Below are positions 9,601-12,600 of a DNA stretch of 64,000 bases, one piece after another. Position 1 is the stretch's first letter, and each line of letters begins with the position of its first letter. A program made the position numbers and the translations under genes. The stretch lies in the NCBI GenBank assembly GCA_903813345.2, contig CAIIXF020000001.1, positions 2,666,001 to 2,730,000 on the forward strand, read 5' to 3'. Origin of the DNA: Owenia fusiformis. Its lineage: Eukaryota. The notes under the pieces were generated by a model, which had not been told where the DNA came from, made no database searches, and saw only the letters and a list, made by a program, of their open reading frames with translations.

Positions 9601-12600
9601 ATATGTGACATTACATACTAGAAATGTGACATAACATACCAGAAATCTGACATTACAAACCAGATATATAACATACCAGAGATGAGACATTACATACTAG
9701 AAATGTGACATAACATATGTGACATTACATACTAGAAATGTGACATAACATATGTGACATTACATACTAGAAATGTGACATTACATACCTGCACCAACTC
9801 TTGCAACTCTTTCTTGACATTCTCTAGACCACCAATATCCTCCCAGCTGACATTTGGTACTTCTACTGATGTCTCTCTCAGAGCACTTGGGTTACTCTTG
9901 CTCAAAGCCCACTGAAACAAACCAGATATGATTAACATATTATTACATACATATATTATTAACATACATATAATTAACATTATCAAGAGACTTGGTATGT
10001 TTGGAAATTACTTAAAACAAAAGTATATTGCTAAATATTATTCAATTTATCTAACACAAACTGAAACTACTATTTACAATTACATGTACATGTAAACATT
10101 TCATTTGTCAAATGATTTATATTGCACATGATTATATATATATAATATATCATAAGCCTTCCACCCAATGAAAGTAACATATTATTTCATTTAATATAAC
10201 AATAACATGGTTAATTAACACAGCAGTATCAGATAATTTGATAGAGATCTTCAAATAAAAGCAAAGATAATGAAAACCACATTCTTTTATTAACAGTATG
10301 GTATACTGGTCCTTGATAGTCAGCAAATGCATGATATAAAAATATACATAAATATCAAATTAATTTGCTCAAATTCCCCTGTTTTGCTTATCAATTCCAT
10401 TTCATTTGTGTTTGTTTTTATATCATTTACTAAATAGCCTTGATGGCAACAACAAGATACAGATTGTGGTTTTTATTCTCCAAAGATCTTCTATGGAAAA
10501 CGCTCTACTGTTAACAATATAACAGAGGAGCGAGACTTCAACCTCACCCAACAAATGCGCTTACGAAGATCTCATCTTGCATCCTGTTCTCCCCCTGCTC
10601 CATTTGCTCTCTTTAGAGAGAATGTGGAGGGAGGGGAGGTACAGGGACTAGAAGACGAGAACTCAAGCTAAACATGTAACTTGATTATTGCACAATTGAT
10701 CAAGGCTTTAGTATACAGCAGGGAAACGTAACAACATTTTATGCAGTTTTTCAATTTCTATTTTGTGTGTTGTTCTTACATATCAAAACCCCAACTATTT
10801 ATAATGGCTACCAGTTCAGATTCAAATCTAATATCTATACTGATATCAAAGGAACAATCAAATTTTGCTACCATTGAATGCAACACTATGGGCTAGTCTA
10901 TACATTTAATCAAAATTTAACAAGAACTTTCCATTTTATAAAATGATTGAGAAATGTATGTCTCTTCATCCATTATTCATCCTATTCAGCACATGTCTGG
11001 AGGAAAACACACAGGCATGTTGCAAGTTTGTAAATTCAGAGAACTTTGTAGGAGTGAAACAATACAATTCAATACTATAGCCAGGACCCACATCCCTAGT
11101 TATCTTTTCACTTGTACTGGGCACAGATGGTTAAAGCCCCACAAAAGCAGGCATATAACATGTAATTTATATTCTAAATGCATAAAATTGGTTATTTGTG
11201 AAAAGCAGGTGTCAAACCGCTCCCCATGTGGTTAAATTCACCATCTGCCACATTCAACTGAACAGGCTTCTCCCAACCACCATGATCTGGCACAAAAACC
11301 AATTAGGTGTTGGTAAAACAGAAACAGTGAGCACATATTCAGCAATTTAAGGTTCACCGAGGTTCGTTTTTATGATACTTATAGTTCTTTGAATAATTAA
11401 GATGGGTCAAATTACTGGGCAATGGTCCAATTCTTAAAAACATGCCTTGTTTCAATTCTTTAACTATGACGATACCATAAGACAAATAATTTCATGAAAT
11501 GTAATTCTCACCATAATTTCTTGAAACAAGCTCCTGGTTCTATTTAAAGTTACTATGCTTTGATAAGAAACTTAAGCTATAACTGAATTGACCCTCCCAT
11601 TATAATCATCACTAGAAATGTAATGAAACAACCTTTTAATTAACAGAGGTTAGTGATGAACTTATGTTAAGTGGAAGCTAAAAGCCTAGATTGCTAATGG
11701 CAGTCAGTCATATATCAACCAGGTAGTCATATTAGCAACCTGGGGGCCATTAACAGAAACTTCATAAAGTTAAGAATTCGTAAAGTCCATTGTGGGCCAA
11801 CAATTGATTTACGAATTCGTAACTTTATGAAGTTTCTGTTAATGACCCCCTGGTTGATATTTGACAGATATCCTTTATATTAGAGCAATGGCAAGCAAGC
11901 TAAGAACATTGCTAAGCTATAAGCAATAATCCTGCCAAGAACATGTAACAAGACACAAGGCACTTTGAGCAGAATACCCTGAAGTCTTCCTGTGTCACAC
12001 TCAGTGAGTCCAGGACCTCAGCGTCAATAGTGTCATCTTCTAGATCTATAAGATCCATTTTCTCCCTAATCTGTTGAAGAGCAGCCTCTGAGCAGAGAGC
12101 AGCCAGATCTGAGCCTACGTGACCATGGGTCTCTGAGGCAACCTAGAATAGCTAGAGTGTACTAGAATCTAGTCATGTAATGCCACCTGAGTGAATACTA
12201 TCCTTTAGGACCTGGGGAATCCCTAACGGGTATCAGTATATGGCCCCATTCTGCATGTCAACCTACAAACCTGAAAGAAACCAGGTTCTTTCCCTCCAGG
12301 TGTGGGTGAAGGCCGAACAGCATCATACCTAGAATAGAGATGATGAAAATATGGATTCAGGATCCACTGTCGGTGTATCTTACCCTAAAATCTTCTTGTG
12401 TTACTGCAAGTGTATCTAGGACCTCTGCGTCAATTGATTCATCCTCTAAATCTATTAAGTCCATCTTTTCTCTGATTTGTTGTAAAGCAGCTTCTGAACA
12501 AAGAGCAGCGAGATCTGCTCCAACATGACCATGAGTTTCTGATGCTACCTAATCATAACATATACATGGCACAAAATGTTAGGACAAGCATTTAAAGTGG

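Follow-up and report, generated by a model that had tools for sequence, protein, structure and literature searches.

An ancient tandem pair of D1 lid exons in a p97/VCP gene of Owenia fusiformis, with both copies retained and the second in minor use

Few ATPases are as conserved or as intensively studied as p97/VCP, which most animals encode in a single gene and which is taken as a uniform homohexamer. The stretch of DNA analysed here, a window of 64,000 nucleotides from Owenia fusiformis (contig CAIIXF020000001.1, positions 2,666,001 to 2,730,000 of the forward strand), offers a less simple picture, as it contains a p97/VCP gene in which one exon, encoding the helical lid of the D1 domain, occurs twice in close tandem. 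Such an arrangement raises the question of why a gene of this kind holds two versions of a single structural element, and whether the second one is a decayed remnant, an addition to the protein or a true alternative to the first. A first-pass annotation of this DNA, made from its letters and open reading frames, had already proposed that the two copies are an old duplication, spliced in an either-or manner to give two types of p97 protomer.

The host gene, which encodes p97/VCP (transitional ER ATPase), lies on the minus strand. By tblastn, residues 6-801 of Mytilus VCP could be laid out over exons running from position 18924 down to 611, most of them 83-97% identical to the Mytilus protein, collinear in the order N-D1-D2 and carrying the conserved sequence of the family. 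Over roughly 600 aligned residues, the identity between the VCP of the window and those of molluscs is ~92%, and the collections searched contained nothing closer. A single part of the query was matched twice: residues 396-450 hit both 12548..12384 (94.5% identity) and 12142..11963 (83%, with an alignment that runs a few codons into the intron), and the same search found no second copy of any other VCP exon within the window. Two constitutive exons on the minus strand, both placed by tblastn with Mytilus VCP, flank these matches. Exon 9 (12854..12966, its acceptor read from the sequence) encodes the last portion of the alpha/beta part of D1, from which the lid follows, and exon 11 (9789..9911) encodes the D1-D2 linker and receives RNA junctions from both lid exons. 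A 35-nt tandem unit of ~2.6 copies, at 9700-9790, begins right at the donor of exon 11, which ends at 9789.

The two lid exons will be referred to as 10a and 10b. Exon 10a (12384..12548, minus strand), the major copy, and exon 10b (11978..12142, minus strand), the minor one, are each 165 nt or 55 codons long, in phase 0, open in frame 1 and bounded by AG before and GT after, and they are separated by a GT..AG intron of 241 nt (12143..12383). This layout is just as the first-pass annotation had described it, and the same holds for the differences at the protein level, which amount to 5 of 55 residues: A/S at position 11, E/D at 37, S/T at 38, T/S at 46 and A/S at 48 (10a/10b). Moreover, a repeat search independently ranked the pair first in length among the direct repeats (171 nt, 77%), and the resemblance greatly exceeds what chance would give. 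Homology extends no more than 3 nt past the exon on either side, the alignment breaking down just outside the borders into unrelated flanks. Both copies match one and the same 55-residue segment of Mytilus VCP and, with 50/55 residues identical to each other, they represent the same structural element. Their identification as the D1 helical lid also held, since phmmer places residues 1-55 of 10b on human p97 residues 399-453 (PDB chains of 806 residues); the five variable positions correspond to residues 409, 435, 436, 444 and 446 of human p97. All five substitutions are conservative. Position 11 of the lid belongs to a G-A/S-D motif that we take to lie next to the nucleotide pocket, and human disease mutations are known in the D1 lid region. 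In terms of composition, exon 10a shows a GC3 of 0.18, the lowest among the VCP exons of the window, the others ranging from 0.28 to 0.53 with a mean of 0.39. A foreign or otherwise unusual origin of 10b was considered on the same grounds and rejected, its GC3 of 0.45 falling within the 0.28-0.53 of the other exons.

The age of the duplication, and the constraints under which the copies have evolved since, can be approached through the distribution of their differences. Exons 10a and 10b differ at 39 of 165 bases, of which 7, 1 and 31 correspond to first, second and third codon positions, respectively. The method of Nei and Gojobori gives a pS of 0.81, a saturated value beyond the Jukes-Cantor limit, against a dN of 0.068. 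With figures like these, and 31 of the 39 differences in third positions, the earlier suggestion of an old duplication with both copies under purifying selection finds clear support. Neutral drift over such a span would not have spared the reading frame, the splice sites and the 50 of 55 shared residues; purifying selection must therefore have acted on 10a and 10b during most of their history as separate copies. Gene conversion was also contemplated as the cause of their similarity and discarded, because the synonymous sites are saturated and a recent conversion would have homogenised the silent sites.

The use of exon 10b was followed in three stranded raw-read RNA-seq runs of one study (X14, X15 and X16, bearing the same species label), together with a set of DNA-like contigs (X1), all of them aligned to positions 9650-13100. 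About 6-12% of each RNA run was sampled, a read likeness cut-off of 95% was applied, and junctions were listed when seen in at least 3 reads from 2 start points, with a share threshold of 2%. The main path through the gene is well represented: exon 9 is joined to 10a (12548/12854) in 124, 131 and 164 reads, and 10a to exon 11 (12384/9911) in 134, 134 and 182 reads of X14, X15 and X16, respectively. The donor of 10b is also joined to exon 11 (11978/9911), in 3, 3 and 1 reads. These figures represent 2.2%, 2.2% and 0.5% of the junctions into exon 11, a usage low and similar in the three samples that fits splicing noise as well as regulated use. When pooled, 7 of 457 junctions into exon 11 (1.5%) come from 10b and ~98.5% from 10a. 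Exon 10b is, in these three samples, a genuine but minor alternative exon and not a co-equal partner of 10a, its share being low in all of them.

Read depth was examined along the same region. In the bin of 10b (11970-12085) it reaches 3.3, 3.8 and 3.2 in X14, X15 and X16, in that of 10a (12434-12549) 174, 192 and 219, and in a bin of the intron between them (12202-12317) from 0.09 to 1.8. In X16, the depth over 10b is 3.16 versus 0.09 in the intron bin upstream, and since the introns of this run are essentially empty, 10b must be spliced in there and not retained together with an intron. In X14 and X15, the depth of 3.3-3.8 over 10b is only slightly above that of the highest intron bins (up to 3.2 and 2.7, respectively), so that depth alone is weak support for 10b splicing in these two runs and the contrast is clean in X16 only.

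Three other junctions would complete the picture, those joining exon 9 to 10b (12854/12142), 10a to 10b (12384/12142) and exon 9 directly to exon 11 (12854/9911, a double skip), and none of them reached the listing threshold in the three RNA runs. For a junction this rare, ~2 reads are expected per run versus a threshold of 3, with a probability of ~20% that none of the three runs reaches it, and therefore the absence of the exon 9-10b junction says little. By the same token, a junction as rare as 10b may sit below the threshold, which makes the absence of 10a-10b joining and of double skipping compatible with their low-level use. Five sequence variants in 10b, combined with the 95% likeness cut-off, may in addition have cost some 10b reads. 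The interpretation given in the first-pass annotation was in this way supported in part, with either-or splicing as a plausible pattern: the donor of 10b is joined to exon 11 (7 reads) and no junction between the two copies is listed, but none from exon 9 to 10b is listed either.

Those five variants offer a view of exon 10b in the present. They are sites where the reads, or the DNA-like contig bearing the same species label, depart from the window sequence, at positions 12032, 12035, 12038, 12050 and 12068, and all of them (5/5) are third-position synonymous changes. As ~23% of the sites in exon 10b are synonymous, such an outcome would be expected by chance with a probability of ~0.0006, or ~0.01 if three linked sites are counted as one event. 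Present-day variation in 10b represents a second, independent signal of selection. The RNA reads also depart frequently from the window sequence at 9905, 12429, 12896 and 12929, in the constitutive exons (12896 and 12929 in exon 9) and 10a. The one at 12429 (G>A, seen in 139 of the 187 X14 reads) is synonymous and falls in exon 10a, the one at 9905 is synonymous by reading of the codon, and the four are probably ordinary polymorphism.

A difference in the splice signals accompanies the uneven use of the two exons. The donor of 10a (AGG/GTAAGA) keeps 6 of 9 matches to the CAG/GTAAGT consensus, and the donor of 10b (AGG/GTATTC) 4 of 9, without the A at +4 and the G at +5. The first-pass annotation had regarded the acceptor of 10b as the weak one; the two acceptors are however alike, the pyrimidine share at -23..-4 being 0.65 for 10b and 0.55 for 10a, and the weak element turned out to be the donor GTATTC, which by itself could explain 10a as the default exon. 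The intervening intron is, as had been remarked, GC-rich for this locus (44% versus 25% in the intron between exon 9 and 10a and 33% in that between 10b and exon 11), and a regulatory role for it is a matter of speculation. Its fold is unremarkable, and no sign of docker/selector pairing emerged from RNA folding, in which this intron did no better than its shuffles (-72.6 kcal/mol, z -0.38). Some inverted repeats touching the flanks of 10b were taken into account as docking, selector or looping RNA elements (I5, 22 nt, 77%; I7, 24 nt, 71%; I12, 18 nt, 78%) and set aside because they are short, imperfect and judged to be at chance level. A more conspicuous element of this region is a MITE-like hairpin of 127 nt (11733..11859), ~120 nt downstream of the 10b donor, with 52-nt arms that are 92% complementary and a fold z of -11.0. 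This hairpin is very highly repeated, its depth in the DNA-like X1 reaching 4179, and each of the three RNA runs has reads from both of its strands; it is probably a bystander to 10b.

The same features restrict the means by which the joint use of both exons could be prevented. Nonsense-mediated decay (NMD) cannot enforce exclusivity, because both exons are multiples of 3 in phase 0 and either co-inclusion or double skipping would keep the frame. An incompatibility between U2 and U12 sites is excluded as all the sites are GT-AG, and simple steric hindrance is unlikely given an intron of 241 nt. Strict exclusivity, if it holds, would have to depend on trans-acting factors or some form of RNA pairing.

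Relatives of the pair were then sought in protein and metagenome collections. Neither the 10a nor the 10b peptide occurs in exact form among the representatives of the protein collection (longer proteins), and an exact look-up of the Met-started ORFs of both exons in this collection retrieved neither. The best protein matches reach 95% for 10b, in scallops with a single lid of mixed states, and 98% for 10a, in the transcript P0017. Among 181 lid segments from longer VCP/Cdc48 proteins, a Ser at position 11 is found in 24, the 10b-like DT at positions 37-38 in 56 and the 10a-like ES in 31, and the fungal Cdc48 chain in 6chs also carries a G-S-D-L as in 10b. None of these 181 segments has either the Ser at position 48 of 10b or the Thr at position 46 of 10a. 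Ser at position 48 is likewise absent from 114 short genomic lid ORFs, all of single-copy type and parsed from the best 120 of 408 matches, although this search among short proteins is a weak one, as a 10b ORF starting at its internal Met would score below those best 120. Each copy would accordingly carry one private change and otherwise stay within the normal range of the family, as far as the compared sequences go. The short genomic ORFs also revealed that a lid exon ending in ...FR and followed by an intron starting with GT is conserved in many animals. With 10b as the query, two lid copies at one locus were found in none of the 80 metagenome loci kept, most of which are transcripts or come from distant eukaryotes; these collections, both of proteins and of metagenomes, may lack relatives. 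Three database entries with more than one lid (P0003, P0004 and P0123, from two birds and a contamination-flagged record in a sturgeon assembly) were rejected as relatives, since blocks spanning the lid are repeated in them without any change and look like artefacts of assembly or gene modelling.

Altogether, the explanation that we favour, with a confidence somewhat above even, is that of an ancient duplicated lid exon of which both copies have been kept, with 10a as the default and 10b replacing it in a minority of transcripts. A tandem duplication of the 165-nt D1 lid exon produced in ancient times two copies that were both retained as coding sequence. Exon 10a, with its better donor and with the first acceptor reached from exon 9, is the default choice, and in the ~1.5% of transcripts of the three samples in which 10b is joined to exon 11, this exon would substitute for 10a in a mutually exclusive manner, leading to a p97 protomer of the same length with five lid residues changed. 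The cell can thus probably make a rare second version of p97. The Mytilus VCP isoforms of equal length (see below) speak in favour of this reading, as annotated cases of substitution in the same protein. Either-or use seems to us the most plausible pattern, in which 10b would be a replacement and not an addition, its use would rise in some tissue, stage or stress, and the five residues would change function. Replacement is preferred to addition on indirect grounds: under selection 10b has retained exactly the size and character of a lid, and an AAA+ domain would have no room for two lids.

A more sceptical reading would see in 10b a near-silent relic, subject to low-level splicing noise and giving no meaningful protein. 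The modest 7 of 457 junction reads into exon 11, a weak donor with 4 of 9 consensus matches, the lack of any junction upstream of 10b at the listing threshold of the three runs and the failure to find an orthologue of 10b in the protein and metagenome collections all speak for this reading. On the other hand, the exon has kept its open frame, its two splice sites and 50 of 55 residues in the face of saturated synonymous sites, and the current polymorphism of 10b is synonymous in 5 of 5 cases, so that we consider this reading unlikely, though still to be reckoned with.

Much lower is the probability we would assign to 10b being a cassette exon added after 10a, which would result in a p97 whose 55-residue lid occurs twice in a row. 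Double inclusion would indeed be in frame, both exons being 165 nt long and in phase 0, and it would escape NMD; moreover, the partner upstream of 10b was not observed in the three runs. Against it, no 12384/12142 junction reached the listing threshold, 10b has kept the length of a single lid and near identity to 10a, as one would predict of a replacement but hardly of an insert, and the database proteins with two lids (P0003, P0004 and P0123) are the exact repeated blocks of artefactual look mentioned above. In structural terms, a second lid in the AAA+ fold would disrupt the connection of D1 to D2. Finally, that the second copy is just an artefact of the assembly or a collapsed haplotype can be practically dismissed, as nothing specific points in this direction other than the existence of artefactual double-lid models in other assemblies. 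The two exons have different bases at 39 of 165 positions and their flanks are unrelated, RNA reads are spliced from the 10b donor, and in X1, which is independent and DNA-like, they lie in separate contigs with their own flanks (11926-12156 for one; 12270-12402 and 12373-12686 for the other).

Under the preferred reading of 10b as a minor replacement for 10a, the locus may have some relevance beyond this species. If the second lid exon is selectively maintained, it would offer a natural experiment in the tuning of the D1 lid, and the two exons provide in any case a concrete pair of natural variants, five residues apart, for biochemical comparison. Should 10b never exceed 1-2% of transcripts, the locus would mainly illustrate for how long an exon in rare use can be preserved by purifying selection. 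It is tempting to speculate on p97 hexamers of mixed 10a and 10b composition. A broader idea, which we regard as possible but doubtful, is that p97 has been diversified by independent exon pairs, in the D1 lid here and in D2 in Mytilus (see below), with a regulated 10b that becomes substantial in some other tissue, stage or stress, mixed hexamers and, through position 11 of the lid motif, an altered handling of nucleotide by D1. Taken together with the Mytilus D2 isoforms, a maintained 10b would indicate that exon substitution, and not gene duplication, is the route by which p97 is diversified in some invertebrates.

Tandem duplicated alternative exons are a known class, and p97/VCP is a protein without a described case in the literature searched: a full-text search retrieved no description of duplicated, mutually exclusive or alternative exons in VCP, p97, Cdc48 or TER94, and the term "mutually exclusive" in reviews on VCP, to judge by their titles and the openings of their abstracts, apparently does not refer to exons. 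For mutually exclusive exons, Pillmann et al. 2011 (WebScipio, PMC3228551) give as criteria a similar length, the same splice-site type and phase, and homologous sequence. Exons 10a and 10b are like this class in being adjacent, of equal length, in the same phase and part of the same structural element, and they have the same type of splice sites and a phase compatible with both neighbouring exons. As for the joining of each exon to both neighbours, junctions of 10a are abundant on both sides, and those of 10b that were listed, at a threshold of 3 reads per run, lead to exon 11. The pair is unlike the class in that 10a takes ~98.5% of the junctions, exclusivity is here putative, and NMD, U2/U12 incompatibility or a very short intron are inapplicable as enforcing mechanisms.

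Other duplicated exons resemble the pair to a different degree. Martinez-Gomez et al. 2022 (PMC9741552) describe events of the same kind in human, substitutions of tandem duplicated exons, most of which are reported to be ancient, with highly expressed isoforms, unlike the second isoform at this locus, which is rare; the term "VCP" appears 0 times in the main text of that article. In the oyster alternative oxidase (PMC5589949), a duplicated exon is alternatively spliced to give two isoforms, the second of which is called stress-adaptive in the title of the paper, and the case is likewise one of a duplicated exon, in a mollusc, but in an unrelated protein.

The closest parallel comes from the VCP of mussels. 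NCBI models of the isoforms X1 and X2 in Mytilus californianus, M. edulis, M. galloprovincialis and M. trossulus (compared as the proteins P0165/P0177, P0171/P0174, P0173/P0179 and P0180/P0176, together with P0178, in a 90% cluster) are all 801 aa long and differ within each species only at three D2 residues, Q/S 565, S/A 582 and A/S 587, and a VCP model of M. coruscus holds both D2 versions in tandem. These protein models point to a separate and independent duplicated alternative exon in VCP, whose counterpart in our window is present as a single copy at 8734-9057, with no second one found in the window. The lid exons described here and the Mytilus isoforms are thus alike in belonging to the same gene family, in giving isoforms of equal length and in their short homologous variable block, but this block is in D2 in the mussels, where 10/10 aligned models share one lid sequence, and in the D1 lid in Owenia.
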